DNA of 64,000 nucleotides from Dictyostelium discoideum (Eukaryota). The position numbers and the translations under genes were made by a program. The stretch spans positions 5,312,001-5,376,000 of the forward strand of contig CM000153.2 in NCBI GenBank assembly GCA_000004695.1. Direction: 5' to 3'. A model generated the notes under the pieces. That model had not been told where the DNA came from. It did no database searches and saw only the letters and a program-made list of their open reading frames with translations. Below are positions 1 through 26,337 of this stretch, in pieces (the first letter of the stretch is position 1; every line of letters starts with the position of its first letter).

Positions 1-367
1 CATTTACTGATAAAACTAAGGCAATTTCAGCTGTGTACTCATTAACCATCCCATAACCCATATGTAGTGTTTTAATAACCAATAATATAATACGTCTTTC
101 ATTATCAATAATTTTTTCAGTTTCTGTCATTGAGTACTTATCAAGACCACTATTAAGGAAATGCATACCATTTAATCTAAATTGAATTGGCTTCCAACCT
201 GAAAATGGGAAAATACTTTCATCACCTGTAATCCACCATAGATCAGTCTCTGTATTATTAAATATCTTTGAATTTATTTCTTTATCTACATAATTTTTTT
301 TATTAAAAAATTGAATAAATGAATTGGCCACTTCATTTAGGTTTAAATTATTATTATTTTTATCCAT
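1..367 (-). CDS. NTF2/SnoaL-like small protein, paralog 1 of 3 (C-terminus cut by window start; ATG = complement of 365..367)
   Basis: rc translation [67 protein letters not shown]... is collinear with the 1189..1680 and 2330..2800 ORFs (FxQFFN, DQWWxSGDxNxYPF, GYDKYS motifs). Confidence 0.5.
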
Positions 368-809
368 TTTTTATATATATATATTTTATTAATTTTTTTT
401 TTTTTTTTTTATACAAACAAAAATAAAAATACAATACAAATTTAATTTTTTTTTTTTTATATCTAAAAATTCAAAAAAACAAAACAAAACAACATGAATA
501 CATTATGAATAACAAATAATTTATAATAATTAATATGTGTAAAAAGACAAAAATTTATGAACTTTTTTATTATTACAAATTTATAATATTAATATATTTA
601 TAGAAATATATTATTTACATACGTTAAATTAAATAATAGATATTACAAAAACAATTAGACTAAAAGTATTATATTTTATTAATTTTTTATGTATTTTTTT
701 TTTATTTTAAATAATAAAAGTTGTGTGGTGAATTTTAATTTTTTAGTTATTGGTTTTTTTATTAATCACTTTATAATTTATGAATATGAATTTTTAAGTT
801 TGTTTATAA

Positions 810-880
810 ATTAAATATGATATAGTTATTAAATACAACAACAAAATTAAATATGATATAGTTATTAAATACAACAGTAA
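810..880. repeat. Tandem duplication (2 x ~36 bp: attaaatatgatatagttattaaatacaaca..)
   Basis: Identical 31-bp core at 810..840 and 846..876, about 70-130 bp upstream of the tRNA gene. Confidence 0.8.
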
Positions 881-946
881 AAATTTAGTAATTTAAAACA
901 TTTCATTGAATCCTATTGTAGTAATAAAGTTATATATTTCATAAAG

Positions 947-1029
947 CCGGCTTTGGCGCAATGGTAGCGCGATTGACTGTAGTAACGAAAGTGATCAATC
1001 GGTTGCTAGTTCGAATCTGGCAAGCCGGA
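947..1029 (+). tRNA. tRNA-Tyr (anticodon GUA) with ~11-nt intron (about 984..994) 3' of the anticodon
   Basis: Acceptor stem CCGGCTT/AAGCCGG, D-arm GCGC-AATGGTA-GCGC (A-box TGGCGCAATGG), anticodon stem ATTGA/TCAAT with loop CTGTAGT (GTA), T-arm GCTAG-TTCGAAT-CTGGC (B-box), discriminator A, T6 terminator at 1031..1036. Confidence 0.85.
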
Positions 1030-1058
1030 CTTTTTTAAAACAAAAATAATATAGTCAC

Positions 1059-3240: not shown

Positions 3241-4431
3241 TCATTTATTATAATAATTATTTAGTGAGTTTATAAGCATTTCATTTGTAATTATATTTTC
3301 AATTGAATCAGATTTAGAACAATGATTTGATTCCGAAATTGATTTATTTGATAATAATAAAAGTTGTGAGAAAGAATTTTGATATCTTGTATATTCAATT
3401 TGAATTGGTAATAGCTTAATACAAGATTGGAAATTTGAAGATTGAATTAATGAAAACCATTCAATATATTCAACTTTTTCACAATTGAATTGTGATCCTA
3501 ATATATTATTAATATTCTCAATTTGTAATGGTTTTTCAACTCCAATATTGATAATATTAAAGCAACGATGTTGTTCTTGTATGTAGCTTTCAATATTAAT
3601 TAGACAATTTGAAATTGTTGTTGATAATGATGAAATTGGGGATGTTAAAAATGAGAATTCTATATTTGGATATGACTTGATTTCAATACATGATTGTAGA
3701 TATAATTGAACATAATCATTTGGATTTGAGAAAATTGAAGGGGTTCTTAATATAATTGTATTCAAATTGAATTTATCAGAAGCTTGTTTTAATAAATGTT
3801 CAGAGACTGCTTTAATTTGTAATGAACCATTTGAAAGTTGAGAAATTTTATCAACTGGTATTAAGGTTTCAAAATCTACAGTACTACTACTATTATTTCT
3901 ACCTAAATTAACATATAATGAAGATATCATTAAAATTTCTTTTATACCATTAGTGATTGAAAATTTAATAATTTCCTTTACAGTTTCGATTTTATATGAT
4001 TCATTTATATAGGTTGAATTTGTTGATTCTACTGCATCACTATCTTGATTAATAATTATTGAATTTACATTATTTGAAAGTATATTCAATTCATCAATTG
4101 GTAAACCAAAGTTATTCTTTGATGAATCACCAAAATAAACATGAATCTTTGAAATTTCAAATTCACTTAATTGTTCATAAAGTTTATATTGTTTAAAACT
4201 ATTTAAAATTTCATCATTTGAATTAATAGAATTAATTCTATCTTTTAATATATAATAAATATTTGAACAATTTGAATCTTTAACTAAATTAAATAATAAA
4301 TGAGTTCTTAAAATTCCAATTGAGCCAATTAATAAAATATTTTTGTTATTATTATCTAATTTTTGATGATGATTTTCATTGTTATTATTATTATTAATAT
4401 CTAATTTAATTTGATTCTCCCAAAATAGAAT
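3241..4431 (-). pseudogene. Detached 3' portion of the minus-strand PKS gene: C-terminal thioester-reductase (R, NAD-binding_4/SDR-type) release domain, separated from the ACP by a transposon insertion
   Basis: Reading frame open from 4431 to the stop at 3241; encodes ILFWENQIKLDINNNN..KNILLIGSIGILRTHLLFNL (TGxTGFLG-type Rossmann motif of terminal R domains). It joins in-frame to ...KYIAGGD at 7798 when the transposon plus one TSD copy is removed. Confidence 0.65.
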
Positions 4432-4436
4432 ATCAC

Positions 4437-4582
4437 TGTTGTAGGGAATTTTCCATAAAATTTCACTACAGTAGCGTAGTGAATTTTATTATTTAATTTC
4501 ACTACAGTAGCGTAGTGAAAAAAAAAAATCACTGACCTTAAATTTTTTTTTTTTTCAAAAAACAAATAAAGTTTATTAAATT
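4437..4582. repeat. Left terminal inverted repeat of the transposon (contains a twice-repeated near-palindromic TTCACTACAGTAGCGTAGTGAA motif)
   Basis: Reverse-complement match to 7652..7797 with only ~2 mismatches over 146 bp. Confidence 0.9.
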
Positions 4583-4639
4583 GAAATTTTATTTTTTGTT
4601 TTAATTATTATTTTATTTATTTTTATTATAATTATTGTT

Positions 4640-4672
<33 letters not shown>

Positions 4673-4813
4673 CAATTTTTTTTTTTTAAATTTTTTTCAA
4701 TTTTTATTTGTTTATTAAATTGTAATTTTATTTTTTGTTTTAATTATTATTTTATTTATTATTATTGTTAATTTTTTTTTTTTTTCAATTTTTTTTTTTT
4801 TAATTTATTTTTA

Positions 4814-6373
4814 TTAATTTATTTTTATTAACTCCCTGAGTTGTTCAATTGCTTGATTTACCATATCACTGTAAACACTGCACACAATTGAATTTTTTCT
4901 AGCTTTGTTACCTCTGGTGCATTTGATGTTTTTGCATTTTCCTTTGTATACAAAAAAGTCCAAATATAATTCGTTTTCTATTACAGTTTTTACACAATGT
5001 TGGTGAAATTGTTTTGATTTTAAGTGGAATGTTGGTAACATCATATTTGGATTTTTAACGATTAAAGCATCACCACTATTGACATATAGTACTTTGGGGG
5101 CTTTTTGGAGGAATTTAGTCAAATTTTCCTCTGAATCTAACTAATCTTCATTGCCATATTCAATGGATAAATTTTTTAAGAGTTGTATCGAATATATTAA
5201 TTAAGCGATCATTCTTTTTTTTTGAAATTTTTTTTTAATCAGATTTAGCAATTTTTTTTTTTTATCAAGTTTTTTCAATTTTTAATAAGTAATATTTTTT
5301 TTTATTTTTAATTATTTGTGTTAACAAATGTAATTTTTTTTTATTGATTTCAACACTTTGTTTTTATTTAATAATTTCCCCATACCCCCTTCTATTAATG
5401 CAACCAAATCAAGTTCTAATTTTTGTGTCCTTGTTGACTTTGTTTTTGCAACTTTTTTTGAAGGTATCACATTAACGATTTTTCCTATTGATGGTGATTT
5501 GGAAGGTGATTTAAATGGTGATTTAAATGGTGAATTGGAAGGTGATTTAAATGGTGAATTGGAAGGTGAAATGGATGGTGATTTGGAAGGTAATTTAAAT
5601 GGTGATTTGGAAGGTGATTTAAATGGTGATTTAAATGGTGAATTGGAAGGTGAAATGGATGTTGATTTGAGAGGTGATTTGGATGTTGATTTGAGAGGTG
5701 ATTTGGATGGTTTAGAATGTGATTTTAAAGGAGGTTTATTAACAATTGGTATCTTATGAGGACGGCCTCTGAGACGTTTAACAGTTGTTACTATACCACT
5801 ACCAGATTGTGGTATAGTATATGATGGTATTATTTGCACTTGAGGTATTGGTGGTACTATTTCTTTTAAATTCATATCCTTTCTCAAACAATTCATTAAA
5901 TTTGGCGCTGTTGGATTATTATTTAAAAATGGGAGTATTTCTTCTTGTTCCATTTCATTATTGAGTTTGTGTTGAAATGGATTATCGTTAATGATAGGTG
6001 GAATATTTGATGGATTGTTAAGAGCATCTTCCAAAACCCTAAATGGATCATTTTGTGTTACCAATTGATGCAAGTTGAAATTGGATAAATCCTTACCAAG
6101 ATTTTTAATAAACTGAACCAGAAATTCAATAACTTTCCCATCATTATTTAAATAAAGACCAGAAGTAAAAGAATCAATATCTTTTTGTATGTTTGGCGAT
6201 GTTCTAAAAATATCAACTGTTGATTGTTTATAAAGAACCAACTTGTTACCTCCTACAAAACCAGAGTATAAACCTTTTTTTTGAAGGCTATTGATTCCAT
6301 CTTCCAAAAATTCAAGTTTATAAAGTTGTTTAGTGTCTTCCTGTATTACCTTATGAATTTTACACAAAATCAA
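4814..6373 (-). CDS. Additional transposon-internal ORFs (350 aa with RGRP AT-hook and SPxK repeats; 102 aa Cys-rich)
   Basis: ORFs 5321..6373 and 4814..5122 lie on the same strand as the integrase fragments inside the TIR-bounded element; function unknown. Confidence 0.35.
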
Positions 6374-6443
6374 TATTTTCTATTAGAATTAAATATAAAA
6401 TTTGTTAATTATTACTGTTTCATATATTATTAATCTTTATGTT

Positions 6444-7287
6444 TTAATTACTTACATTATTTTTTTTAATTTCTAGAAAGAGTACAGTATCACCAACTTT
6501 CAATCCCTTTGGTGGTTTTGAATTCCATTGATTTTGGTAACTTGTGAGATTTTCAAGAATAATAGCTGTTATTTCTTCTTTTGAAACATCTGAAACACCA
6601 ATTGATTGAGAGTCTTGTTCTGATTGCACATTAATAAACAAAGGTACAATACCAACAGCTTGAGATGGTGTCATTTTAATTGTTCTTGTTTTTGTATTAT
6701 TGTAATCATACAAAGCTTGTTTTAATAGTTCAGAAAGAGACCTAGAAGTACCATCAAGAAAACTAAAATTTATTTATAAATGATTAATTAATAAACATAT
6801 CGATAATTTATATTGTTCAAAATATCATACTCTTGTTGTTTTAATTTTGAGATCCTCTCCTTGATAGTTCGATTCAATCTTTCTACCATACCTTGAGTTG
6901 TTGGTGTACGAGGAGCTCCATGTGCTGACTTGGAGCCTGGAAAAAGTTTTAGGAATTCTTTTTGGACTTTGTTTTTAAATTCACGTCCATTATCGCAGTG
7001 CCATACTTTCACAGAGTTTTAATATAAAAGTTACAAAACATCATATAAAAAATGATTGATACCAAACCTTTTATTCTATTTCGTTGGCAAATGTCACACG
7101 TATCTACTGCATCAGATACAAAAGAATACAATCCCATATTATAATATTTAGTCTTGTAGTTCCCATAGGTTGCATCTCTTCCTATATGACCTTTATGCAT
7201 TTCTTCCCAGAGTGATACCATTCTATAATCATTAATTACTTCTAAACACACTTCTTTTGATATATTTCTATCTCCGCCACAATTCAT
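6444..7287 (-). pseudogene. Transposon integrase-like ORF fragments (HHCC zinc finger, DDE core second Asp and Glu, C-terminal part) split over three frames
   Basis: 7287..7009 has HKGH...CDICQRN (HHCC). 7012..6788 has WHCDNGREF...HGAPRTPTTQGMVERLNRTIKE (second D and E of DD35E). No first catalytic Asp block is found between them, so the copy is probably deleted or degenerate. Confidence 0.7.
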
Positions 7288-7651
7288 GACTTTTTTTTCA
7301 ATTCTAAATAATTTTTCTTTTCTGTTTCTGTTTTTTATTGGTCAGAATTTAAAAAATGATTGTGTTATGGTAAGGAAAAATATTTACTCATCATGTAAAA
7401 ATTTATAATTTTTATGTTTAGTATTTTCAAAATTATTATCTTCAATAAATTTTAAATAATTTATCTTGTTTCATTTTGGGAAAATGAAAATAAAAAAAAA
7501 AAAAAAAAAAAAAAAAGTTTTGTTGGGGAAAAAAAAAAAAAATTTTGGCGCAAAAAAAAAAAAAAAAAATAAAATAAAAAAAAAAAAAAATAAAATAAAA
7601 AAAAAAAAATAAAAAAACTTAAATAGAACTAATAATCAAATAAAAGATAAT

Positions 7652-7797
7652 AATTTAATAAACTTTATTTGTTTTTTGAAAAAAAAAAAAATTTAGGGTC
7701 AGTGATTTTTTTTTTTCACTACGCTACTGTAGTGAAATTAAATAATAAAATTCACTACGCTACTGTAGTGAAATTTTATTGAAAATTCCCTACAACA
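7652..7797. repeat. Right terminal inverted repeat of the transposon
   Basis: Reverse complement of 4437..4582. Confidence 0.9.
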
Positions 7798-10700
7798 ATC
7801 ACCACCTGCAATATATTTATATTCAGTTTTATCATTTGGATCATTTTTTGTTGTTGTTGTTGTTTTTGCTGTTATTGGTAATAATTTTTCATCCATTTCT
7901 TTTTTCTTTTTATCTAATGAATCATTTATAATTTGATAAACCATACCAATTGAATTTGATTGAATTTGTTGAATTGTAATAAGATGTGGAGACCATTCTT
8001 TATCGACCCAATTCTTTAATTGTACTGTAATTAATGAATCAGCACCATAGTTTATCATTTTAATATTTGTATTAATTTTTGATGGATCAATTGAAAGAAG
8101 TTCAGAAACTTTGTTTAAAAATTTATTTTTTACATTTGTTGATGATGATGATTGATTGGTATCATTTTCCATTGATATTGAATTATCAACATTAATTGGA
8201 TTTAAAATGAAATCAAATTTTTGATGAAGTTTTTGTTTAAAACTTTTGAATAATGGCCAATTGAAATTATTAACAAATGCATTGGTTGGCATATTTGGAT
8301 TTTGAATTTGTAAATCTAAAGTACCCAATAATTGATTTGGTGATATTAATTCAACACCTTGACCACCTAGTACTGCTTCAACAAGTTTATGTCTTGAAAG
8401 ATAACCTCTATCACTTACACCACCAATGTTAATTGTAAATGATGGTAATCCAATTGATTTACGATATTGTGATAACGAATCCACTACACAACATGCTGAA
8501 ACATAACTACATTGATCAAATGAACCTAATACTGAAACTACTGATGATGCTAAAATGAAATTAATAATTTTCCAATCTCTTTTAATTGATAAATTATGTA
8601 AATTAACTGCACCAAACGTTTTTGCACTATGCGAAACATTTAAACTATTCATATCAATATCTTTAAGTTTTTTATTAATTTGTAAAGCTGCAAAATGAAA
8701 TATTGAATCAATATTTGTAATTGTTGGATTATCTTTTAAAACTTGATCAATTGTTTTATTAATTAAATTCCAATTACTAATATCACATTTTTTGAAATGA
8801 TATTTAATTTTATTGTTATTATTATTATTATTATTGTTGTTGTTATAATTCATTAAAAATTCTAATTCCCATTTTAATGATGATTTTGAAAGAATAATTA
8901 TATTTTCAACAGTTGAATTATATTTTGTTATCCATTTTAAAACTTCTAAAATTAAACCAGTTTGACCTGTAACCAATACATTTTTACCAAGATTTTTAAT
9001 TTTATAATCTGATTTTAATATTGAATAATCAATCATTGATTCTTTTTCAATTAATTTATCTATGATATCAGTATCATGTGAAATTACAATTTTACCAACA
9101 TGTTTTCTTTCTTTAATTGATTCAATTGATTTTTTAATATTTGAATTTGAAAATTCTGTAATTGGTATTAAAGCATTTAAAGTTTCATTTTCAATTGATT
9201 TTGAAATTGACTGTAATAATTTCTTAATTGTTGATTTTCCAACTTTTAAAATTTCAATACTATTATAACCAATATTATATCTATATCTACTATTATCAAT
9301 AAATTCATTTGGATTTAAATGAGTAGTTGTTAAATCTACAATTCTACCTTTTGGATTTAAACATTTAAAATTTGTATCCATAAATTCACTTGATAAAGTA
9401 TTAATAATTAAATCAACACCATGAGTTTCATAACCTAATTCAATTAATTTGTTTTTAATTTGTTTTTGATAATTTGTGTCTCTTGTTGAATAAATTCCAG
9501 TAATTAAATCACCATAGGTATTAATTAGATATTGTTTCTTTTCTTCTGATCCAACTGTAACAAATATTGGTGATGAATGATTATTTGATTTTAATATTTC
9601 CAATCCTGATAATCCAACACCACCAGATCCTGAATGAATTAATACTGATTCTTCATCTCTTAAATTACCAACATCATATAAACAATAAAGTGATGTTGAA
9701 TAAACTGCTGGAATTGAAGCTGCTTGAACATGTGTAATCTTTGATGGTTTATGACATGCTAATAATGAATCAATAATAATATGAGATGATGATGTTTCAT
9801 ATGCAATACCATAAACTTGATCACCAACTTTAAATTCTTTAGATGATTTAATTCCAACACGACTTACTACACCAGAAAAATCAAAACCAATACCAGCTTC
9901 ATTTACTTTTATCATTTCATTATATTTCAAATAATCTTTATAATTTATACCAGTTGCTTTAACTTTTACTTCAATTTCATATGGTTCTAAATCAATTTGT
10001 TTTGAATTTAATTGATATTCAAAATGTTCATCTAATTTTGAAACTAATTGATCTTGTTGTTTTGATAAATCATGATATGATTCAGATTTATAAGAATTCT
10101 TTAAATTTTTTAATTCTTTTTTATACATTTCAAAATAAACAGTACCACTATTTTTTATATAAAATTCTCTTTGAATATTATTTTTTGGATTAATTAAATA
10201 ATCAATGGTTTTGAATAAATCCAAATCATTTGTTAATGAATCTTTATCAAAATCCAATGTAAATAATTGTAAAGTTGGAATTTCATCAAAGTATCTTGCT
10301 GCACCTAAAACTGATGATGATAAATAATTACTTGATTGTGAATCACATGTAATTAAAACATGAGTACATTTTGATTTTAATTCATATAATTTTTGATTAA
10401 TTTGAACATATTCAAATGTTACTGATTTAAAGTTTTCCAATGTTAATTGTTCAATTGATTTAATAAAATAAATGATTGAATTATTTGTAATTGTTGTTGA
10501 TAATTTGTAAAATTCTTCAATTGTTGATACTTTTATTATTTTACAATTATTATAATGATTTTCAAATTTATTAATTAATTGTTGTTGTTGGAGTTGTTCA
10601 TCTTGATAACAATATAAAATTACTTGATCAAATGTGTTTATTGTTTTTGGTTGTAATTTTAATGATGGTTTTTGAGCTTGAATAATAATTGATTTAATAT

Positions 10701-10803
10701 CACTATCAGATATACTTGAAGATTTAATCATTATATCAGAATTGAAATTACAATTAACCAATAAGTTTTTCAATGATTCTTTATTATTTTCATTATTTAA
10801 TAG

Positions 10804-10868
<65 letters not shown>

Positions 10869-13800
10869 CATTTATTATTAAATAACCATTTGGTGTTAAA
10901 ATTTGATAAATTTGATTTAATGAATATTCAATATCTTTTGTTAAATTTGAAATATTTGAAACAATAATTAAATCATAATATGATGGATTTAATTTTTGTT
11001 TTTCTAATAATGAATTATCAACATCTAAACCTAATGAACGATAAAGAATACTTAAATAACCCTTATCTACTTTTGATAATTCTAATTTAGCATCTTTTAA
11101 AATTGATGAATTATTATCACTCCATGTATATTCAATATCAATTTCATAATGTGGATTTTCTTCGAGTAATGAATTGATTTCATTCAATAATAAAGTTGAT
11201 TTTGATAAATTATTACCACCAAATTCTAAAATTCTAAATTCCATCTTTCTATTAATTAATGGTTTAATAGTTTCTATAACAACATTTGGAATTAATAAAC
11301 CATCATCTACTTGATTATTTTGATAAATTGATTTAAATTCTAATGGTGATTGAATTTGTGAATCTTTTGATTGAAGATATGGTGTATAAATAAAATCAGA
11401 TGGAGTTTCAATTAATAATGGATCTTTAACTGGTGTTAATGATTTAACTACCAAGTTATCAACTTCAATGATAACAGTACCATCTTCTAACATAACAACG
11501 ATAGATGAAGAGAGTAAATCATCAGATGGAGATGATTTTAAAGTTGAATAAATAAAGATACTTGAATGTTCATCTCTATTTTTTGGAATATTTGAAGCAT
11601 AATATCTTAAACCTTCAACTTTATCTGTTACAATTTTACAATTCTTTTGAATGTATAGAATAACGGTACCATGGAAACAAGCATCAATGAGTGGACAATT
11701 GAAAAATGATTGTTCATCATGAAAGTTTTCAGGTAATTCTAAGGATATTTCAGTTAATGAACAATTATCACCAATATAACATTCAACTACTTTACTAAAA
11801 ATACCATAAAAGTTTGCACCCAATTGAGTTTTCATTAGTGAATAAAATTCATCCCATGGAATTGATGATAAATTACATTTTGTTTGTTTAATATCTTGAA
11901 TATCCAATTTTTGTTTTTCTTCATGATAATTATCATTACTATTTAAGTGGAAATTAGAATTTGAAGTATTTATCCATTGATTATTCATTTCATCTTTTAA
12001 ATGAAATTGTGCTCTATATTCACTTTTACCAGTTTGATAAACATTTGTTTGTAAACATTGCCCAATACCATCGGTTAATACAAATGGTACCTTAAATTCA
12101 ATTGAATTAATTGTTAAATCTTGATTTGGATATAATTTAAATATATTATCAATATAACCTGTTCCTGGGAAATAACATTTATCAGATACATTATGACCTT
12201 TTAAATATTTGAATGCATCTTTTCCAGTATCAATTATTGTTTGATATGATTTAATAAATGGATTTGAATCTTGCATTGAATTACCGAGAATTGAAATTGG
12301 TGGTCCAATTAAATTATTTTTATGTTCAATTGATTTATTTAACCAATAATGTTGATCATCCCATTGATATAATGGTAAATTAAAATTACTAATAGCCTCA
12401 ATATTGCTATTTATATTATTAAATTGACATTTAAAATTAATATCATAAGCATCATCACAAAATAATTGTGAAATTGATTTTTGAAATTCTTCAACATCAT
12501 TCTTTTTCTTGTGAAGTGTTGAATAAACTGATATTGATTCACCATTTCTAAAGTATTGTGATTGTTTTGGAATCATTTGTTTTAAATAAAATGATAATGT
12601 TGGATGTGGTGCAATTTCAATGAATACAATATTTGAACCGATTTGATTATCTTCAATATGTTTATATAAATTTGAAATTGTTTGAGTGAATGAAACTGGT
12701 TTTGAAATATTATCAAAGAAATATTCAGAATCAAAAATAGTTGATTCATTAAATAAATTTGATGTAACTGTTGAAAATGTTGGAATAACAGGTTGACTTG
12801 ATTGAATATTTAAATTTAAAATATCATCTTTAATTATATTTTGACTACTTGTATGAAAACTTGATAAACTTCCTAACATTGCTGAGAATATTTCTTTTTC
12901 TTTTAATTCTTTTGAAATTTCATTTAAAATTTGTTCATTACCTGCGATTACAATTGATGATGGTGAATTATAACATGCAATTTCAATAGTTGGGTAACGT
13001 GACATATAGTTAGTTTTATATTCATCTGAACTAATGTTAATTGATAACATTTTACCTGACCCATTTGTTCTTATTTGTAATGTTGATCTATGATAAATTA
13101 AATAACATAATTGGTCAATATCAATCATACCTGAACAATAAGCAGTTGTTACTTCACCAAGACTATGACCCAACATAAATGATGCTTTTATACCCCAATG
13201 TTTATAAAGTTCATATAATGATACTTGAATAATTACAGTTGATGGTTGTGCCATTGTTTGTTCATGAACTGAACATTTATCACTATCTTGAATTGCTCTT
13301 AATTTCTCTAAAATTGAATATCCAAAATAATTTTTCATTTTATTATCTAGCATATCCATCGAATTTCTAAATACTTTTTCATTTTTATATAATTCTAATG
13401 CCATTGTATTATATTGTGATCCTTGACCACAAAATACAAATACAGTTATTGGATTATTATTTTTATTTGTAATTGTAATATTTGAAGAAGTACTACTTGA
13501 AGTTTGATATTTAACTTGATTTTCAACATTATTAAAATCATTCCAATCTTTTGCAACAATTACTGATCTTTGATAAAGTGATGTTGATTTATTATAAATT
13601 TGATTTTTAACAAATTCTTCAAAACTATATTGTGATTCATATTCTTTATTTTCAATAATTAATGATTGATATTTTTTTAATGATTCAACTGAATTTGCTG
13701 AAAATGGAATTAAATAATTATTTATTTTTATATTATTATGATTATGATTATGATTATGATTATTATTATGATTATTTATATTATTATTTATAGTATTATA

Positions 13801-14566: not shown

Positions 14567-15230
14567 CAAGTAATATATTAACACCACCAACAATTGACAT
14601 TTTTGATTTTTTATTTTTGATTGAATCATATCCTAATGCGATTGCATTTAAAGATGATGAACATGCAGTATCTAGAGTTATTGAATTACCATGAAGATCA
14701 TAACAATAGGAGATTCTATTTGAAATCGCATGATTTAAACTTGAGAATACATTTGATTTTACTTCATTTTTATTGATATTATGATAGTCACTTTCGGTAC
14801 AACCAATGAAAACCGAAGTATCTGTACCTTTGATTGAAATTGGATCAATTAATGAATCTTCTAATGCTTCCCATGTACATTTTAATAATAATCTTTGAAT
14901 TGGGTCAATGGTTGGTGCTTCATTTGGATTAATACCAAAAAAGAGTGGATCAAATGATTTAACTTCATCCAATGGTAATAGTCCTGAATAATTATTTGCA
15001 ATTTCATGATTTTTGAAAAAGTTATCATTGAATCTTTCTGATGTTTTCACTACACCATCGAAACCATTTATTAAATTATTCCATAATGTTTGAGGTGTAT
15101 TGTTTCTTTCATTTTCAATACTTCCACTTGGTAATCTAAAGCCAACACCAACAATTGCAACTAAATTTTCTTCAACATGTTTATCATCAACTTGTAAAAT
15201 TTCTGCTTTATTTATTTTATTTTGTTTCAT
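14567..15230 (-). CDS. Same PKS, exon 1 (KS N-terminus; ATG = complement of 15228..15230). Intron 14490..14566 (77 nt, GTATGT..AG, phase 1)
   Basis: [12 protein letters not shown]...[13 protein letters not shown]...[35 protein letters not shown] then GTATGT donor. Exon 2 resumes D-SYFFKAYSSLNILSKSNGRCKSFD, parallel to the plus-strand paralog. Confidence 0.75.
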
Positions 15231-15639
15231 TATTTTTTATAAATAAATTATTAATTAATTTTTATTTTAATTGAGTGAAGGCTTTTTAAATAATATAAAA
15301 TAAAATAAAATAAAAAGAAAAGCTACTATTTAATTTTAAAACCAAATACTCTTTTATTTTTATTTTTTTTTTTATTTTTTTTTTTTATAATAATATAGTA
15401 TAGTAATAATACAAACCTTGATCTTATCATAATTAATAATGATAACAAAAAAAAAAATTTTATAAAGATTGGAGATAATGGTTATTAATATTAATAGTTA
15501 AATAAAAAACACTATAAAAGGATCCTTTATTTTTTTAGATAATATGGTTGTGGGGTCGTAAAAAAAAAAAAAAAAAAATAAATTAATGAAAAATAAAAAA
15601 AAATAAAAATTAAGTATTTTTTCTATAACAATTTAATAA

Positions 15640-15702
<63 letters not shown>

Positions 15703-15780
15703 TGATTAATAGTTAAAATTACCTAAATTTAGATATCAATTACCTGTTAAATTATAAAATTCCTCGAACATCCATTATTT

Positions 15781-15837
<57 letters not shown>

Positions 15838-16049
15838 TTCCTATAAATATCTCATTATTTTTTTTTTTGATTAATAAATTGATTATATTTTAGTAATGTT
15901 TAAAATTTTAAATATTTTTTTTAAAAAAAAAAAAAAAAAAAAACAAAAATTATTCATCTTTTATTTAACAAATTTAAACATTTTAAATATTTTTTTAAAA
16001 AAAAAAAAAATTAATTTTTTTTGGATGGATTTAAAAAAAAATTTTAAAT

Positions 16050-16886
16050 TTAAAAATATTTTTTTTTTATTCTTAATAATGGAGTATTATTATTAATATT
16101 AATAATTCCATCAGTACCATTTTCATAAGAAATTTTAAAAATTCCATTTGTATAGTAATAGAAACCTTCGTCGAATTTTAAAAAAAATACAAGACCAGTT
16201 AATATATTTGAAAATTCTACGAAATAATTTGCAGAATATTTCAATTGACCAACTGAAATTGGATTTAAATTAAAAGAGAAAACATTTACAAAATCATTTA
16301 AAGAATTTGTTTTTTCTTGATATATTAAAACACCATTTTCAGTTTCACTTTCAATGATTCTATATATTTTTGTATTATTTGTTAATTTTGGAGATTGACC
16401 AATTTCATTGCCAATTTCAATTGGAAAATAACAAGATAGAAAAGTGAAACAAGCATCAACCAAGTATTTTTTATTCTTAAATTCCATTACATTGCAATAA
16501 TGAAGTCCGATATTTGGGTATACCAAATTCTCTCCACCGTCAATTGCTTTAATTAATTGAACTTTTATTCCAAATTCTTGTAATAACATACCAAATAATA
16601 TATTATGGTTTAAACAAATATTGCCAACCTCTTTCTCTATCATTGTTTCAACAATATAATCCATATCGATTGTTGGTCCATCTTTTAAAACGTCAATATT
16701 ATTATATGGAAAATGTTCTGCAAATTTCACCATTAACAATTCAAAATCATCCAAACAATTTAATTGAAAATCAATTTCTAAATTTAATTTTGGTAATATA
16801 ATTTCTTTAAAATTATATTTTTTATTTGCTAATTTTAATTCTTCATAACTGAAATGTAAAAAATAGTCTTTGTCATTAATTTCCAT
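16050..16886 (-). CDS. Arylamine N-acetyltransferase (NAT)-fold protein, 278 aa, in the spacer between the divergent PKS genes
   Basis: Catalytic-triad geometry matches NATs: Cys91 in VGNICLNHNILFG (cf. RGGYCFExN), His128 in GLHYCNV, Asp143 in YLVDACF (cf. YIVDAGFG). Cys-to-His spacing is 37 and His-to-Asp is 15, as in human and bacterial NATs. Confidence 0.65.
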   Translation of the reverse strand: MEINDKDYFLHFSYEELKLANKKYNFKEIILPKLNLEIDFQLNCLDDFELLMVKFAEHFPYNNIDVLKDGPTIDMDYIVETMIEKEVGNICLNHNILFGMLLQEFGIKVQLIKAIDGGENLVYPNIGLHYCNVMEFKNKKYLVDACFTFLSCYFPIEIGNEIGQSPKLTNNTKIYRIIESETENGVLIYQEKTNSLNDFVNVFSFNLNPISVGQLKYSANYFVEFSNILTGLVFFLKFDEGFYYYTNGIFKISYENGTDGIININNNTPLLRIKKKYF

Positions 16887-16896
16887 TTTTTTTATT

Positions 16897-16932
<36 letters not shown>

Positions 16933-17079
16933 CAAAGTATTGTTTATTTTAAATGAAATTATAATTAAATATAAAAATTAGAGGAATTAAATATATTTTA
17001 AGGGTATAATTTAATTTTTTAAAAATTAATTTATAAAAATTAATAATTTTTATAATAATACCCAAAATTATCTGTTGAT

Positions 17080-17121
<42 letters not shown>

Positions 17122-17407
17122 AACGAAAATCCCAAATTATTTATAAAAATGGTGTGTCATTGTTCGTGGATTCAGGACCCAAAAAATAAAATAATAAAAA
17201 AACAATTCAAGTTCCCATTGAGGAACTTGTTCTTAAATGGGTAATTTTTGAGAAAACTTTATTATTTTTATCAGATAATAGATATAATTTATCTTTTAAT
17301 TACTTTAATACCATTAAATTATTAATAATTTAAAAAAATAATATTATTTATTATTTCCTACACAATTTTAAAAATTAAAAAAACAATTATAAAAAAAAAA
17401 TTTTAAA

Positions 17408-17488
17408 AATAAAGAAGTGAGATTAATATTTTTCCACAACTTGGAATTCTAAAACCAATACAAATGTGCATTATCTCACTTCTTTATT
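17408..17488. repeat. 16-bp perfect inverted repeat (AATAAAGAAGTGAGAT ... ATCTCACTTCTTTATT) with 48-nt spacer
   Basis: Read directly; located in the divergent PKS intergenic region. Confidence 0.8.
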
Positions 17489-18550
17489 TTTAAAATTTTT
17501 TTTTTATATTTGCCATACCTTAATAATCTATTATTTTTTTTCATTTTCACAATTTTAATTAATTAAGCTATTTAATTTATCATTCATTTTTAAATTTTAA
17601 TTTTAATTAAACAAAATTTTTTTTTTTATTTTTAAAAATTTATTTTTGTTATTAGTATTTGTTTATAAATGATCTTTTTTTTTTAAAAAAATTAATTTAA
17701 ATCTTTGAATCTGTGTCTATTAATTTATTTTTATTTTTTTTTTTTTTTATAAAAAAAAAAAAATTTGATGTGCAAATCGGGTTAAAAAAAAAAAAAAAAA
17801 AAACAAATGGATTTGTTCTATCTAAATAGGGTTAATAGAAAAAAAATTTAGGTTTTCAAAAAAAAAAAGTTCTGTATTTGTTATTGTGGTAACTTTTTTT
17901 TTATAATTTTTCATTTTTTTTTTTTTTTCCATTCATTTACATTTTTAACACCACACCAAAAGTTTAAATATATACAAAGGTTTTTTTGAAATGTGGTGTA
18001 TTGTTGTGAGATTCAATGGTTAAGTGGATATTAAATTTTAATTTTAAAAAATTTTTAATAACCTAATAGTAATCAATAACTCAAATTTTAGAAAAAAAAA
18101 AGAAAAGTAGTATCAATAAAGTGGAAGAAAAAAAAAAAAAATTTTAAACCACCAATTTATAATTTCATATAAAAAATTATTAATGCTTAGTAAAAGAATA
18201 CAAAATTTTTTTGCTTCCCATTGAAACTTTCACTAGATAATCCAGTGATTTTTTTAACATGTAATCTAACACTTTAAAAGAGTAAAAATTATGTAAGCAA
18301 TACTATAAACACGTGATACAATTTATTTATTTATTATTAATAATAAGAAACAAACCACACCAAAATTTTTATTAATATAAGAAAAAACCACACCAAAATT
18401 TTTAAAGATAATATTAAAATATAATTTACTAATTTATATTAATATATTATTATTTTTTAAAAAAAAAAAAAAATAAAAATTGATTTAAAAACAAATTTTA
18501 TATATTTTTGATTTTATATATTTATCAAACCAATAAAACAATTTTTAATA

Positions 18551-19238
18551 ATGGATAATAGTTATTTAAATAATCCCCAATTTGATATTAATAATGGTAA
18601 TAAAGAAGTTACAGATGATGATAATAATAAAAATAATCAAGATAATTTAGTAGCAATTGTTGGTGTTGGTTTTAGATTACCAAGTGGTGAAAATGAAAGA
18701 AATAATACACCTCAAGCATTATGGAATAATTTAATAAATGGTTTCGATGGTGTAGTGAAAACATCGGAAAGATTCAATGATAACTTTTTCAAAAATCATG
18801 AAATAGCAAATAACTATTCAGGACTATTACCATTGGATGAAGTTAAATCATTTGATCCACTCTTTTTTGGTATTACTCCTAATGAAGCACAAACTATAGA
18901 TCCTCATCAAAGATTATTATTAAAATGTACATGGGAAGCATTAGAAGATTCATTAATTGATCCAATATCAATCAAAGGTACTGATACTTCTGTTTTCATT
19001 GGCTCTTCAACAAATGATTATCTTACATTAAATAGAAATGAAGTAAAATCAAATGTGTTTGGTAGTATGGCTCATTCAATTGCAAATAGAGTATCCTATT
19101 GTTATGATCTTCATGGTAATTCAATAACTCTAGATACTGCATGTTCATCATCTTTAAATGCAATCGCATTAGGATATGATTCAATCAAAAATAAAAAATC
19201 AAAAATGTCAATTGTTGGTGGTGTTAATATATTACTTG
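18551..19238 (+). CDS. Type I iterative PKS (plus strand), exon 1; intron 19239..19324 (GTATGT..AG, phase 1)
   Basis: [10 protein letters not shown]...[20 protein letters not shown]...GGVNILL then GTATGT donor; paralogous to minus-strand exon 1. Confidence 0.8.
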
Positions 19239-19324
19239 GTATGTATTATTTTTAAAATTTTTTATTATATTTTATTTTTTACAAAATTATTAATTAAAAT
19301 TATATTATTATTTTTTTTTAAAAG

Positions 19325-22300
19325 ACCCATATCCATATAAGGCATTCTCAATTTTGAATATGTTAAGTAAATCAAATGGTAGATGTAAATCATTTGATGC
19401 ATCAGCTGATGGATTTGTTAGAGGTGAATGTATTGGTGTTGTTATTTTAAAGAATTTAAAAGATGCAATTAAAGATGGTAATAGAATTTATTGTACAATA
19501 AATGGTGCAAGTGCAAATGTTGATGGTATTGGTTATTCTGATAAATCAAATTTCTATTCACCATCATCAATTTCACAATCTGAAAATTTAAAAAATGCAA
19601 TTCAATCAACCAATGGAACTGTTAAACCATCTGATATAGATTATGTTGAAGCACATGGCACTGGTACACCAAATGGTGATCCTGTAGAAACCGAAGGTAT
19701 ATCAAAAGTTTTTAAAGATACTCGTTCAACTGATACTCCATTATTAATTGGATCATTTAAATCAAATATTGGTCATTGTGAAGCTGCTTCTGGTATTGCT
19801 TCATTAATCAAATGTTGTTTAATGTATAAAAATAAATGTTTTGCACCAAATATTCATTTTAAAACACCAAATCCAGCAATTAAATTTAAAGAATGGAATT
19901 TAAAAGTTGTAACTGAACCAATTCCATTTAATGAAAATAAAAATACTTCAATGATTATTAATAACTTTGGTGTTACTGGTTCAAATTGTTGTTTAGTATT
20001 ATCTCAATTTAATAATACAAATAAACAAAAACAACAAATGAAAACAAAAATAAATAATTATTTAATTCCATTTTCAGCAAATTCAGTTGAATCATTAAAA
20101 AAATATCAATCATTAATTATAAATAGTAAAGAAAATGAATTAAAATATAGTTTTGAAGAATTTGTTAAAAACCAAGTATTTATTAAACCAACATCACTTT
20201 ATCAAAGATCTGTAATTGTTGCAAAAGATTGGAATGATTTTAATAATGTTGAAAATCAAGTTAAATATCAAACTTCAAGTAGTACTTCTTCAAATATTAC
20301 AATTACAAATAAAAATAATAATCCAATAACTGTATTTGTATTTTGTGGTCAAGGATCACAATATAATACAATGGCATTAGAATTATATAAAAATGAAAAA
20401 GTATTTAGAAATTCGATGGATATGCTAGATAATAAAATGAAAAATTATTTTGGATATTCAATTTTAGAGAAATTAAGAGCAATTCAAGATAGTGATAAAC
20501 GTTCAGTTCATGAACAAACAATGGCACAACCATCAACTGTAATTATTCAAGTATCATTATATGAACTTTATAAACATTGGGGTATAAAAGCATCATTTAT
20601 GTTGGGTCATAGTCTTGGTGAAGTAACAACTGCTTATTGTTCAGGTATGATTGATATTGACCAATTATGTTATTTAATTTATCATAGATCAACATTACAA
20701 ATAAGAACAAATGGGTTAGGTAAAATGTTATCAATTAACATTAGTTCAGATGAATATAAAACTAACTATATGTCACGTTATCCAACCATTGAAATTGCAT
20801 GTTATAATTCACCATCATCAATTGTAATCGCAGGTAATGAACAAATTTTAAATGAAATTTCAAAAGAATTAAAAGAAAAAGAAATTTTCTCAGCAATGTT
20901 AGGAAGTTTATCAAGTTTTCATACAAGTAGTCAAAATATAATTAAAGATGATATTTTAAATTTAAATATCCAATCAAGTCAACCTGTTATTCCAACATTT
21001 TCAACAGTTACATCAAATTTATTTAATGAATCAACTATTTTTGATTCTGAATATTTCTTTGATAATATTTCAAAACCAGTTTCATTCACTCAAACAATTT
21101 CAAATTTATATAAACATATTGAAGATAATCAAATCGGTTCAAATATTGTATTCATTGAAATTGCACCACATCCAACATTATCATTTTATTTAAAACAAAT
21201 GATTCCAAAACAATCACAATACTTTAGAAATGGTGAATCAATATCAGTTTATTCAACACTTCATAAGAAAAAGAATGATGTTGAAGAATTTCAAAAATCA
21301 ATTTCACAATTATTTTGTGATGATGCTTATGATATTAATTTTAAATGTCAATTTAATAATATAAATAGCAATATTGAGGCTATTAGTAATTTTAATTTAC
21401 CATTATATCAATGGGATGATCAACATTATTGGTTAAATAAATCAATTGAACATAAAAATAATTTAATTGGACCACCAATTTCAATTCTCGGTAATTCAAT
21501 GCAAGATTCAAATCCATTTATTAAATCATATCAAACAATAATTGATACTGGAAAAGATGCATTCAAATATTTAAAAGGTCATAATGTATCTGATAAATGT
21601 TATTTCCCAGGTGCAGGTTATATTGATAATCTTTTAAAATTATATCCAAATCAAGATTTAACAATTAATTCAATTGAATTTAAAACACCTTTAATATTAT
21701 CAGATGATAATGGTCAATTTTTACAAACAAATGTTTATCAAACTGGTAAAAGTGATTATAGAGCTCAATTTCATTTTAAAGATAATAGAACAAATGTATG
21801 GGTTCAAACATGTACTGCTAATTTTCAATTATATAATAATGGTAAAGTTGATAAATTAAATTTAGAAGAAATTAAATCAACAAAATGTAATTTATCATCA
21901 ATACCATGGGATAAATTTTATCCACATATAAAAAATAGAACTGGTTTAAACTATAAAGACAAATTTCAAAATACAATTGAATGCTATCTTGGTGATAATT
22001 GTTCATTAACTGAAATATCATTAGAATTACCAGAAAACTTTCATGATCAAGAATCATTTTTTAATACACCAATTTTAGATATTTGCTTCCATGGTTCAAT
22101 TGTTTTAATTAAGGATAATTGTAAACTTGTTTTGGATAAAATTGATGGTTTTAAATTATATACATCAAACATTCCAAAAAATAGATTTGATCATTTAAGT
22201 ATTTTTGTATATACAACTATGAAATCAACAAAATCAAATTCATACAATTCAACATACACAGTAATGTTAGAAGATGGTACTGTTATACTTGAAGTTGAAA

Positions 22301-25300
22301 ATTTAATATGTACATCATTAACACCAGTTAAAGATCCATTATTAATTGAAATTCCAACTGATATGTATTATACTCCATATCTTCAATCAAAAGATTCACA
22401 AATTCAATCACCATTAGAATTTAAATCAATTTATCAAAACAATCAAGATAATGATAGCTTATTAATTCCAAATGTTGTTTTAGAAACAATTAAACCATTA
22501 ATTAATGAGCAAATGGAATTTAGAATTTTAGAATTTGGTGGTAATAATTTATCAAATTCAACTTTATTATTGAATTCAATCAATTCATTACTTGAAGAAA
22601 ATCCACATTATGAAATTGATATTGAATATACATGGAGTGATAATAATTCATCAATTTTAAAAGATGCTAAATTAGAATTATCAAAAGTAGATAAAGGTTA
22701 TTTAAGTATTCTTTATCGTTCATTAGGTTTAGATGTTGATAATTCATTATTAGAAAAACAAAAATTAAATCCATCATATTATGATTTAATTATTGTTTCA
22801 AATATTTCAAATTTAACAAAAGATATTAAATATTCATTAAATCAAATTTATCAAATTTTAACACCAAATGGTAATTTAATAATAAATGAACAACAACCAA
22901 ACAATGAAAATAATGAAAATAATGAAGATTCATTGAAAAACTTATTGGTTAATTGTAATTTCAATTCTGATATAATGATGAAATCTTCAAGTGTATCTGA
23001 TAGTGATATTAAATCAATTATTATTCAAGCTCAAAAACCATCATTAAAATTACAACCAAAAACAATAAACACTTTTGATCAAGTCATTTTATATTGTAAT
23101 CAAGATGAACAATTCCAACAACAACAACAATTAATTAATAAATTTGAAAGTCATTATAATAATAATTGTAAAATAATAAAAGTATCAACAATTGAAGAAT
23201 TTTATAAATTATCAACAACAATTACAAATAATTCAATCATTTATTTTATAAAATCAATTGAACAATTAACATTGGAAAACTTTAAATCAATAACATTTGA
23301 ATATGTTCAAATTAATCAAAAATTATATGAATTTAAATCAAAATGTACTCACGTTTTAATTACATATGATTCTCAATCAAGTAATTATTTATCATCATCA
23401 ATTTTAGGTGCAGCAAGATACTTTGATGAAATTCCAACTTTACAATTATTTACATTTGATTTTGATAAAGATTCATTAATTAATTTAGACATTTCGGTTA
23501 TAGATCATTTGATAGATCCAAAACAAAATACATTGATTGAATTCTTTATTAAAAAAAATGGTAAAGTTTATTTTGAAAGATTTAAAAAAGGTTTAAAGAA
23601 AAATTCTTTTAAATCAGAATCATATCATCAAATTACAAATGAACAAGAAATTTTAATTTCAAAATTAGATGAAAATTTAGATTATCAATTAAAATCAAAA
23701 GATTCAATTTTAAAACCATATGATATTGAAGTAGAAATTAAAGCAACTGGTTTAAATTATAAAGATTATTTAGTATATAGTGGTTTAATAAAATTAAAAG
23801 GTGATAGTGTTGATTTTGGTCTTGATTTTTCTGGTAGAGTTAGTCGTGTTGGAATTAAATCATCAAAAGAATTTAAAGTTGGTGATGAAGTTTATGGTAT
23901 TGGACAATCAACATCATCATCTCATATTATTATTGATTCAATGCATGCATGTCATAAACCATCAAAGATTACACATGTTCAAGCAGCTTCAATTCCAGCA
24001 GTTTATGCAACTTCAATTCATTCTTTATATAATATTGGTAATTTAAGAGAAGGAGAATCAATTTTAATTCATTCAGGATCTGGTGGTGTTGGATTATCAG
24101 CATTGGAAATATTAAAATCAAATAATCATTCATCTCCAATATTTGTTACAGTTGGATCAGAAGAAAAGAAACAATATCTAATTAATACCTATGGTAATTT
24201 AATCACTGGAATTTATTCAACAAGAGATACAAATTATCAAAAACAAATTAAAAACAAATTAATTGAATTAGGTTATGAAACTCATGGTGTTGATTTAATT
24301 ATTAATACTTTATCAAGTGAATTTATGGATAGCAATTTCAAATGTTTAAATCCAGAAGGTAGAATTGTAGATTTAACAATTACTCATTTAAATCCAAATG
24401 AATTTATTGATAATAATAAATTTAAATATAATTTTGGTTATCATAATATTGAATTATATTATTGTGAAAAGCCAACAATTAAGAAACTATTACAGTCAAT
24501 TTCAAAATCAATTGAAAATAATACATTAAATTATTTAATTCCAATTACAGAATTTTCAAATTCAAATATTAAAAAAGCAATTGAATACATTAATGAACGT
24601 AAACATGTTGGAAAAATTGTAATTTCTCATGATACAGATATTACTAATAAATTAATTGAAAATCAACCTAAAATTGATTACTCTTTATTGAAATCAAATT
24701 ATAAAATTAAAAATCTTGGTAAAAATGTATTGGTTACAGGTCAAACTGGTCTAATTTTAGATATTATAAATTGGATTATGAAATATAATTCAACTGTTGA
24801 AAATATAATTATTCTTTCAAAATCATCAATGAAATGGGAAATGGAATTTTTAATTAACAACAATAAGACAAAAATTAAATTCTATTATAAAAGATGTGAT
24901 ATTGGTGGTGATTCAGATTCAATTAATAAAACATTTGATAAATTGTTTACAGAAAATCCAACAATTACAAACATTGATTCAATATTCCATTTTGCAGTTG
25001 TACAAATTACAAGAAAAGTAAAAGATATTGATATGAAATCATTAAATATTTCACATGATGCAAAAACAATTGGTGCAATTAATTTACATAATCAATCAAT
25101 TAAAAGAGATTGGAAATTAAGTAATTTCATATTAGCATCTTCAATTCTTTCAAAAGTTGGTTCATTAGATCAATGTGGATATGTTTCAGCATGTTGTGTA
25201 CTTGACTCATTTTCAAAATATCGTTTATCTATTGGATTACCTGCATTATCAATTAATATTGGTGCTATGGGTGGAAGTGGAATGGTTGCAAGAAGTGAAC

Positions 25301-25779
25301 TTGTTGAAACTGTACTTAATGGTCAAGGTTATAATTTAACCTCAACAAACCAACTATTAGGTACAATTGATTTATTAATTCAAAATCCTGGTCAAGAATC
25401 AAATAATTTAATGGTTGGTAATTTTAATTTCCCAGTTTTTAATAATTTCAAACAAAAGATTCATCAAAAATTTGATTTTATTTTTAATGCTCTTGATTCA
25501 AACTCTGAAAATGGTGATGGTAGTAATATCAAAAATTCAACAAATATTAAAGATAAATTTTTAAACAAAGTATCAGAATTTCTTTCAATTGATTCATCTA
25601 AAATTAATAATGATATTAAATTAATGAATTATGGTGCTGATTCATTAATTACTGTTCAATTAAAGAATTGGGTTGATAAAGAATGGTCTCCAAATTTAAT
25701 TACAATTCATCAAATTCAATCAAATTCAATTGGTATGGTTTGTCAAATTATAAATGATAATTTTGAAAAAAAAAAATAA
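19325..25779 (+). CDS. Type I iterative PKS (plus strand), exon 2: KS-AT-DH-ER-KR-ACP, ending 26 residues after the ACP with no release domain (total 2380 aa)
   Basis: Same motif order as the minus-strand PKS. Ends ...LMNYGADSLITVQLKNWVDKEWSPNLITIHQIQSNSIGMVCQIINDNFEKKK*. Confidence 0.85.
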
Positions 25780-25931
25780 ATTAAATAATCAAAATATCTA
25801 CCTTGTTTTTCAATCCCCTCTCTCTAATTTATCTTTCTTAAATTATTAAATAAAAAAAATAAAATAAAATAAGTTTAAAAAATGTTATTAAAACAAACAT
25901 CAATTATTGATTTATTTTTTGTTTTTTTAAT

Positions 25932-25967
<36 letters not shown>

Positions 25968-26337
25968 CTCACTGAGAAAATTATCAAACGTTATCAAATA
26001 AATAAGTTGATTTGATAATAACGTTTCTTTAAAGAAAAAATAATAAAAAAAAAAAAATCAATTATTATCAAATTATTAAGTTAATAAAAAGAAACGTTAG
26101 GTAACAAAATCATTCCCAAAGATATTTCAGATTTTTTTAATTCAACGAATTACAAATTTTTATTTTTTTAAATTTTTTTTTTCAATAAAAAAAAGAAAAA
26201 TCATCAAACAAAAAAACAAGATATTTTCCATGGTTTTTTTTTATTTTTTTTTTTTTTGCTTTTATATAAATAACGTTTATTTTTTTTTATTTTTTTTTAT
26301 TATTTTTTTATTTAAACTAAATAGTATAATAAAAAAA

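Follow-up and report, generated by a model that had tools for sequence, protein, structure and literature searches.

The 64,000-nucleotide stretch of DNA analysed here (the window; contig CM000153.2, positions 5,312,001 to 5,376,000) was placed by exact protein look-ups on chromosome 4 of Dictyostelium discoideum AX4, and it has a GC content of about 20%. Its left end holds genes for two polyketide synthases (PKSs), an arylamine N-acetyltransferase (NAT)-fold enzyme and three small proteins of family UPF0523 (U523A, U523B and U523C), all of which are annotated genes. Read along the minus strand, the order is nat4, pks24, U523C, U523B, U523A and the P450 gene cyp513B1, with pks25 transcribed divergently on the far side of nat4; the window edge cuts through U523A and leaves its 3' part, together with cyp513B1 (DDB_G0287087), just outside. 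Genes for non-homologous enzymes (PKS, NAT and NTF2-like) are therefore physically adjacent within 26 kb, and the P450 gene sits just outside the window. We consider it reasonably probable that a polyketide gene cluster, stalk-cell-specific and under developmental control, has its core here and that its pathway includes at least some of the accessory genes, a reading supported by the co-expression of seven genes and by a gene order that is conserved at short range.

Of the roughly 45 PKS genes of D. discoideum, only a handful have known products. The two genes at this locus start at 15230 (pks24, DDB_G0287119, minus strand) and 18551 (pks25, DDB_G0287095, plus strand) and are separated by a spacer of 3,320 bp (15231..18550), which contains nat4 and is therefore not one simple promoter common to both PKSs. 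One phase-1 intron is spliced from each. The main part of pks24 occupies 7798..15230 (exon 1, 15230..14567; intron, 14566..14490; exon 2, 14489..7738), and pks25 spans 18551..25779 (exons 18551..19238 and 19325..25779; intron 19239..19324), its 2380-residue product being an exact database match. Pfam assigns ketosynthase (KS), acyltransferase (AT), dehydratase (PS-DH), enoylreductase (ER; ADH_N/ADH_zinc_N_2), ketoreductase (KR) and acyl carrier protein (ACP) domains to both proteins, and the active-site motifs DTACSS, HGTGT, NIGH, GHSLG, HNVSDKCYFP, GSGGVG, TGQTGL and GADSL are intact in both. A degenerate methyltransferase-like segment (ILEFGG) without a Pfam match lies between the DH and ER domains. 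With these domains and motifs in one polypeptide, both proteins are predicted to be type I iterative highly reducing PKSs (HR-PKSs). The divergent KS-AT-DH-ER-KR-ACP pair around a 3.3-kb spacer that a first-pass annotation had described from the DNA letters is thus borne out by Pfam, the motifs and the measured spacer. The protein sizes it gave, about 2400 to 2850 residues, suit pks25; the upper figure holds for Pks24 once a transposon is removed from its gene (2848 residues), but the AX4 open reading frame (ORF) encodes 2471.

The spacer gene nat4 (DDB_G0287121; 16050..16886) lies upstream of pks24 on the same strand. Its product scores 67.3 bits with Pfam Acetyltransf_2 (PF00797), for which the cut-off is 22.8 (E 2.3e-18; profile positions 2–231 of 240). 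In an alignment with Mesorhizobium NAT1 (2bsz), the catalytic triad of that enzyme is matched by Cys91, His129 and Asp144 of NAT4, three residues that are invariant in seven orthologues. An AlphaFold model built from seven close orthologues reached a pLDDT of 47, too poor for triad geometry, and a word-indexed homologue search returned near-identical orthologues alone. From profile and alignment, nat4 is predicted to encode a Cys-His-Asp acyl-transfer enzyme of the arylamine N-acetyltransferase fold, as had been proposed for the spacer. The 3' end of the gene differs in the reference: the AX4 ORF has 278 codons, whereas other strains and species have 285–298 and end in ...KYFKI.NIDLKSI... Seventeen of the 21 mismatches that separate the window from assembly GCA_054883475.1 over about 19 kb are base substitutions within the 150 bp from 16013 to 16162, and they shorten and alter the NAT4 C-terminus in AX4. 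This end is probably a sequence error, which the (DICDI)NAT4 entries have taken over.

The three small genes lie on the minus strand. U523A (DDB_G0287089; 2..334) is represented by about 110 N-terminal codons, the remainder lying beyond the window start; U523B (staE, DDB_G0287091; 1189..1680) encodes 163 residues and is an exact database match; U523C (DDB_G0287093; 2330..2800) encodes 156 residues. U523B and U523C are paralogs with 45% identity, and tblastn with both found U523A at 49–56% identity (E 1e-31 to 1e-39). From the AX4 pks24 stop to the closest of the three copies is a distance of 4.9 kb, which falls to 441 bp when counted from the end of a displaced reductase-like segment of pks24. 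The three tandem paralogs predicted earlier are all real, with the reservations that one is cut by the window start and that the DGKIC[AL]IKEYFDPS signature is visible in U523B and U523C alone, the C-terminus of U523A being outside the window. A "tRNA-???" called by ARAGORN between U523A and U523B (947–1030, plus strand) has a four-base anticodon in AT-rich DNA and is probably a false positive.

A direct Pfam scan of U523B and U523C, which included SnoaL_2, SnoaL and DUF4440, returned no family at E ≤ 0.1. When a profile made from UPF0523 only was scanned against 1.8 billion representative sequences, 29 proteins matched at E ≤ 1e-3 (from 5e-9 to 1e-3). In a 25-sequence alignment of these matches, U523B and U523C included, 21 carry Pfam SnoaL_2 and 15 also SnoaL; entries of SnoaL type were weak matches of the profile (E 0.008–0.009). 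Its best solved relative by sequence was Dcr3 (E 2.2e-4), followed by AtoB. The AlphaFold2 model of U523B (pLDDT 79.5) has an alpha+beta cone topology, and Foldseek matched it to many NTF2-like structures in the PDB with probability 1.00 and TM scores of 0.5–0.77, at their head the fungal meroterpenoid isomerases AusH, Trt14 and PrhC, the aldolase AtoB, the xanthone-pathway isomerases NsrQ and Dcr3, and TerC and BvnE. Homologues in Heterostelium album and D. purpureum are named "SnoaL-like domain-containing" in UniRef. Profiles and the model thus place UPF0523 in the NTF2-like/SnoaL_2 superfamily, where its closest neighbours are fungal enzymes that tailor polyketides and meroterpenoids. The fold proposed for the small genes stands on profile, model and structure search, but not on a direct Pfam match. 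The name "polyketide cyclase" is not secured, since isomerases and an aldolase, rather than SnoaL, stand closest among the characterised relatives, and both "SnoaL polyketide cyclase" and "amide synthase" are predicted labels that describe a fold. Neither of two outcomes named beforehand as counting against the cluster, a different fold for the small proteins or a missing triad in NAT4, was observed.

A word-indexed homologue search for U523 found near-identical orthologues alone; an alignment query added the H. album protein and two fungal ones. The fungal homologue from Xylariales sits between an HR-PKS and a non-ribosomal peptide synthetase (NRPS) gene, a setting that the Ilyonectria homologue does not share. 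In comparison with D. citrinum, dN/dS is 0.10 for U523B and 0.20 for U523C, indicating purifying selection. In the literature U523B appears as staE, a stalk marker with the entry "unknown function, no domains" and with a stalk-specific promoter-lacZ fusion.

Expression was taken from supplementary file 5 of Kin et al. 2018 (PMC6198379), which holds the Parikh 2010 time course and RNA-seq of purified cell types; the sheet used was taken as stalk-specific from the file's sheet order and from values that are highest in stalk. Eight consecutive genes fall in the stalk-specific set: DDB_G0287085, cyp513B1, U523A, U523B, U523C, pks25, pks24 and nat4. All but DDB_G0287085 are close to zero from 0 to 12 h, rise at 16 h and peak at 20–24 h, with 80–100% of the time-course signal at 20–24 h and 87–95% of the cell-type signal in stalk. 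Pairwise correlation coefficients (r) among these seven genes are 0.85–1.00, contradicting the uncorrelated expression that had been named in advance as speaking against a cluster. DDB_G0287085 is also enriched in stalk; it is on from 8 h and correlates with the seven at r 0.44–0.81. The flanking genes DDB_G0287083 and DDB_G0287097–101 are absent among the stalk-set entries covered from that file. The co-regulation expected of a biosynthetic gene cluster (BGC) is present at this locus.

The arrangement is also conserved in close relatives. D. citrinum has a collinear order, with pks25 on the minus strand and NAT, pks24, U523C, U523B, U523A and the P450 gene on the plus strand; 377 bp separate the pks24 stop from the start of U523C, and U523A is a stand-alone ORF of 158 residues with its own stop at 11931, followed by the P450. 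The 625-residue "p450" model of that species (locus 11455–14333) merges the U523A ORF with the P450. D. dimigraforme is largely collinear and keeps pks25, NAT and pks24 followed by the start of one U523C-like gene; a 620-residue model there (locus 20769 onwards) starts U523C-like and is probably an annotation merge of the same kind. In a wild D. discoideum isolate and in GCA_054883475.1, pks25, NAT and pks24 are kept as far as the loci reach, and in the latter, a near-isogenic assembly, the start of U523C was also seen. D. cf. discoideum GCA_054859235.1 carries a second, diverged divergent pair of a pks25-like gene and a NAT (92.6% and 87% DNA identity to the window). No pks24 or U523 gene is adjacent to this second pair, and a CfaA_B_C-domain gene follows it. 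As far as seen, the cluster appears to be confined to the D. discoideum species complex.

Timing and position bear on a very unlikely alternative for nat4, namely that it is a conventional xenobiotic-detoxifying NAT lying in the spacer by chance, with the two PKSs, and perhaps the U523 proteins and the P450, forming the linked set. An ordinary Cys-His-Asp triad and a match to Acetyltransf_2 would suit such an enzyme, as would the finding that genes for arylamine-precursor biosynthesis of the AHBA (3-amino-5-hydroxybenzoic acid) type were not present among the window ORFs; antiSMASH-style "in a BGC" calls, moreover, follow from proximity alone. Growing, feeding amoebae are where an enzyme of detoxification should be found, yet nat4 is silent in them; it is switched on at 20–24 h in stalk alone, in step with the PKSs. 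Its position between the PKS genes is kept in three species and again in the duplicated pks25-like/NAT pair, and the gene is under strong purifying selection (dN/dS 0.07 against D. citrinum).

Part of the system has been described before. According to the main text of Günther et al. 2025 (PMC12625978), knock-outs of pks24, of pks25 and of both in the AX2 background lose metabolite features in common; the authors state that one promoter region serves both genes and report "initial evidence" for one pathway. The candidate features are annotated there as a polyprenylated cyclic polyketide and a chlorinated polyaromatic amine, together with a "meroterpenoid-like" compound. That main text does not mention nat4 or an N-acetyltransferase, UPF0523, cyp513B1, tailoring or adjacent genes, nor stalk-specific co-expression or a transposon-split AX4 allele. 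A 2024 survey of NATs (PMC11213898) noted that, among those of protists, (DICDI)NAT4 alone "could reside in a BGC". The first-pass annotation, which presented the system as previously undescribed, was therefore mistaken on this point. Its remark that metabolic gene clustering is not expected in amoebozoans was overstated as well, since the TPS8-CYP521A1 metabolic gene cluster is documented in D. discoideum itself (PMC6524965). In the literature searched there was no description of the seven-gene unit, its stalk co-regulation or the fold assignment of UPF0523/staE. The novelty claim is valid in part. The proposal of a BGC is plausible on the strength of co-expression and short-range synteny.

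With a stalk list of 757 genes and an assumed genome of about 12,700, a run of seven such genes is very unlikely by chance if the genes are independent. Several observations weigh against reading the run as a pathway. Tandem duplicates account for three of the seven genes and inverted duplicates for two, and these have duplicated promoters in common; counted as four or five independent units, the seven give expected chance runs per genome of about 0.16 and 0.01, respectively, so that the calculation is suggestive rather than overwhelming. U523B reaches 5,650 transcripts per million (TPM) in mature stalk compared with 3–13 TPM for the PKSs, a level out of the ordinary for a tailoring enzyme, which would also suit a binding or structural role. 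A search of five upstream regions for common GC-containing k-mers of 6–10 nt yielded nothing convincing. The nearest UPF0523 homologues found in D. purpureum (DICPUDRAFT_87219) and H. album (PPL_10458) have no PKS, NAT or P450 gene within 10 kb, from which it follows that the linkage is young and perhaps incidental. Mutant metabolite data cover pks24 and pks25 alone among the seven genes, and the metabolite annotations given in the main text of PMC12625978 are computational rather than solved structures.

The main rival explanation, which we find doubtful, is a co-expressed stalk neighbourhood in place of a pathway. Here nat4, the U523 genes and cyp513B1 would be unrelated late stalk genes with a chromatin domain or duplicated promoters in common, and the PKS pair would be one of many locally duplicated Dictyostelium PKS arrays. 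For U523B/staE this would mean an abundant protein of the stalk, such as a binder of small molecules, with no part in polyketide synthesis. The unlinked U523 homologues, the very high level of U523B and the small number of independent units all agree with this, and DDB_G0287085, enriched in stalk on a different time course, indicates that stalk genes cluster beyond a single pathway. A neighbourhood of unrelated genes accounts less readily for seven tightly correlated profiles with a common late onset, or for order, strand and tight spacing that are kept in D. citrinum, with pks25-NAT-pks24 and the U523C-like start in D. dimigraforme. Moreover, PKS, acyltransferase, NTF2-like and P450 genes are families typical of PKS clusters, and in structure U523 comes closest to enzymes that tailor PKS products and meroterpenoids. 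We continue to favour a polyketide gene cluster.

The pks24 gene of the reference strain is interrupted. Its ORF diverges from the orthologues after ...KYIAGGD and reads into a transposon, where a stop follows at 7738 after another 19 codons. In D. citrinum the tail of pks24 is collinear with window positions 4431..3241, where the displaced 3' end of pks24 (3241..4431, minus strand) continues in frame for 396 codons plus a stop and encodes a reductase-like NAD_binding_4 domain. Between the two parts, within the pks24 coding sequence, lies an element of 3,361 bp (4437..7797) with 269-nt terminal inverted repeats (TIRs) that are 84% complementary. Its ends read TGTTGTAGG... and ...CCTACAACA, with TGTTG termini, and it is flanked by a 5-bp target-site duplication (TSD), GTGAT, at 4432..4436 and 7798..7802. 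ORF fragments at 6788..7287 match Integrase_H2C2 (E 6e-9) and rve_3 (E 2e-4). By its TSD, TGT termini, TIRs and integrase the element is a DNA transposon of the Tdd-4/Tdd-5 (Ginger2) type as defined in PMC2836005, an assignment by family features in which the element was set beside Tdd-4 and Tdd-5 by their published properties. These likewise have a 5-bp TSD, TGT... termini, TIRs of about 260–297 bp and H2C2 and DDE ORFs; they are longer, at 3,839 and 3,783 bp, and the integrase frame of the AX4 element is broken into fragments. A remnant of a long terminal repeat (LTR) retrotransposon, considered for the integrase-like ORFs at 6444..7287, was rejected on three grounds: the long terminal repeats are inverted and not direct, the TSD has 5 bp, and the other ORFs scanned within the element, in a scan that did not cover all frames, had no Pfam match, reverse transcriptase included. 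An ORF at 4814..5122 with a weak match to AtaL (E 0.078) was dismissed, as it lies inside the transposon.

No insertion occupies the site in D. citrinum or in either of two further D. discoideum assemblies: the wild isolate, whose Pks24 has 2852 residues and includes NAD_binding_4, and GCA_054883475.1, which is otherwise 99.5–100% identical to the window. Removing the element and one TSD copy in silico restored the 2848-residue Pks24 with its additional NAD_binding_4 domain, identical to the protein spliced from GCA_054883475.1 and equal in length to the annotated pks24 model of that assembly. Exact look-up in the protein collection found neither this transposon-free model nor the 2471-residue AX4 model. 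Native Pks24 is accordingly KS-AT-DH-ER-KR-ACP-R, where R is the reductase-like domain, and the AX4 reference allele is disrupted. Since the transposon separates the release domain, AX4 probably makes a truncated Pks24, and it may lack the native pks24 product.

The restored NAD_binding_4 domain is recognised by Pfam at E 3e-16. In an alignment with the reductase domain of MxaA (4u7w), the catalytic Tyr of the short-chain dehydrogenase/reductase family is replaced by Ser (GSLQIK in Pks24, GYAQSK in MxaA), and the glycine-rich NAD(P)-binding motif is degenerate (IGSIGILR). D. citrinum Pks24 has the same residues at both sites, and a dN/dS of 0.17 between the two species points to purifying selection on the domain. 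Redox-incompetent R* domains of fungal PKS-NRPSs are likewise Tyr-less and catalyse non-reductive release. By analogy, the domain in Pks24 may be a non-redox release domain. Pks25 ends right after its ACP, without a release domain of its own.

Six sequences, pks24 and pks25 from three species, were aligned to compare the paralogs. Within each species the two genes are 94–99% identical in alignment windows 1000–3000, which cover the C-terminal part of KS, the linker and AT, and in windows 4000–5000, a mid-gene segment; orthologues across species are 85–92% identical there, so that paralogs are closer than orthologues. In the other alignment windows the paralogs are 73–87% identical, mostly below the orthologues (83–92%); these windows include the DH and ER-KR-ACP parts. 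Such a mosaic pattern is the mark of recurrent gene conversion over part of the pair, with the DH and ER-KR-ACP parts staying distinct, and pks24 and pks25 are differentiated paralogs rather than redundant copies.

DDB_G0287097 and DDB_G0287099, the first two genes past pks25 (not individually matched to window ORFs), are missing among the stalk-specific genes listed, and this places the cluster boundary at pks25. The neighbours beyond it are ordinary (26230–27834, plus strand; 27911–28579, minus; 58324–59895, minus; 62001–63464, plus): genes for a FNIP-repeat protein, a histidine-phosphatase/PGAM-family protein, subunit A of the vacuolar-type ATPase (vatA) and a subunit of phenylalanyl-tRNA synthetase. 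The 34% GC peak of the window is explained by vatA, which is found in the cup-specific expression list. About 22 kb past pks25, with unrelated genes between, a stand-alone ORF of 596 residues rich in Asn runs (47561–49351, plus strand) contains a segment resembling a PKS-type KR (Pfam KR, E 1.3e-6) that is 28% identical to the pks25 KR and carries a GKTVLITGQEGL motif. Genes for a transporter or a pathway-specific transcription factor were not seen in the window.

The locus resembles several known systems in part. Like fungal clusters with two PKSs or an HR-PKS and NTF2-like enzymes, it combines iterative type I HR-PKSs with co-regulated NTF2-like and P450 genes; unlike them, its host is amoebozoan and its expression is tied to one terminal cell type. 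U523 is 14–19% identical to the fungal NTF2-like enzymes (Trt14/AusH/PrhC, NsrQ/Dcr3 and AtoB), a likeness of fold and sequence profile. The RifF-type amide synthases of actinobacterial ansamycin clusters, reviewed in PMC11213898 along with acyltransferase NATs of bacterial BGCs, are likewise NAT-fold Cys-His-Asp enzymes encoded beside PKS genes, and here one of the two adjacent PKSs, Pks25, lacks a release domain of its own. In the RifF setting, however, the PKSs are modular, the NAT gene is directly downstream and AHBA genes are present, none of which applies to nat4: its PKSs are iterative and it lies upstream of pks24. The DdTPS8-CYP521A1 cluster shares the organism and a P450, but comprises two genes for a terpenoid pathway, compared with seven genes of four or five families here. 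The pks24 and pks25 genes of Günther et al. are the identical two genes, in AX2.

For a polyketide pathway at this locus we propose the following steps. Pks24 and Pks25 would make one product or two joined chains, as in two-PKS fungal pathways. NAT4 would move an acyl group via its active-site Cys onto an amine, the group being either acetyl from acetyl-CoA or the ACP-bound Pks25 chain, and the U523 NTF2-like proteins and CYP513B1 would isomerise, cyclise or oxidise the scaffold. The pks24/pks25-dependent annotations "polyaromatic amine" and "meroterpenoid-like" in the main text of PMC12625978 are weakly consistent with a NAT and with Trt14/AusH-like proteins. A more specific combination, which we think unlikely, would join a true seven-gene BGC, a RifF-like NAT4, a Tyr-less R*-like release and a stalk-specific, amine-containing polyketide. 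NAT4 would then be a eukaryotic counterpart of RifF that off-loads or transfers the Pks25 chain onto an amine, Pks24 would release its product through a redox-incompetent R*-like domain, and UPF0523 and CYP513B1 would shape the ring system. If this were true, the locus would be the largest BGC so far in Amoebozoa, and AX4 would be a natural pks24 release-domain mutant.

The transposon-split allele of pks24 in AX4, the Tyr-less reductase-like domain and the mosaic gene conversion of the PKS pair are new here. With a split pks24 and a suspect nat4 3' end in the reference, results and gene models from AX4 may not transfer to AX2 or wild strains. Beyond the two synthases, we propose nat4, the three NTF2-like genes (staE included) and cyp513B1 as co-regulated partners of pks24 and pks25, which gives a gene set, a cell type and a time—the stalk at 20–24 h—in which the pks24/pks25 compound may be sought.

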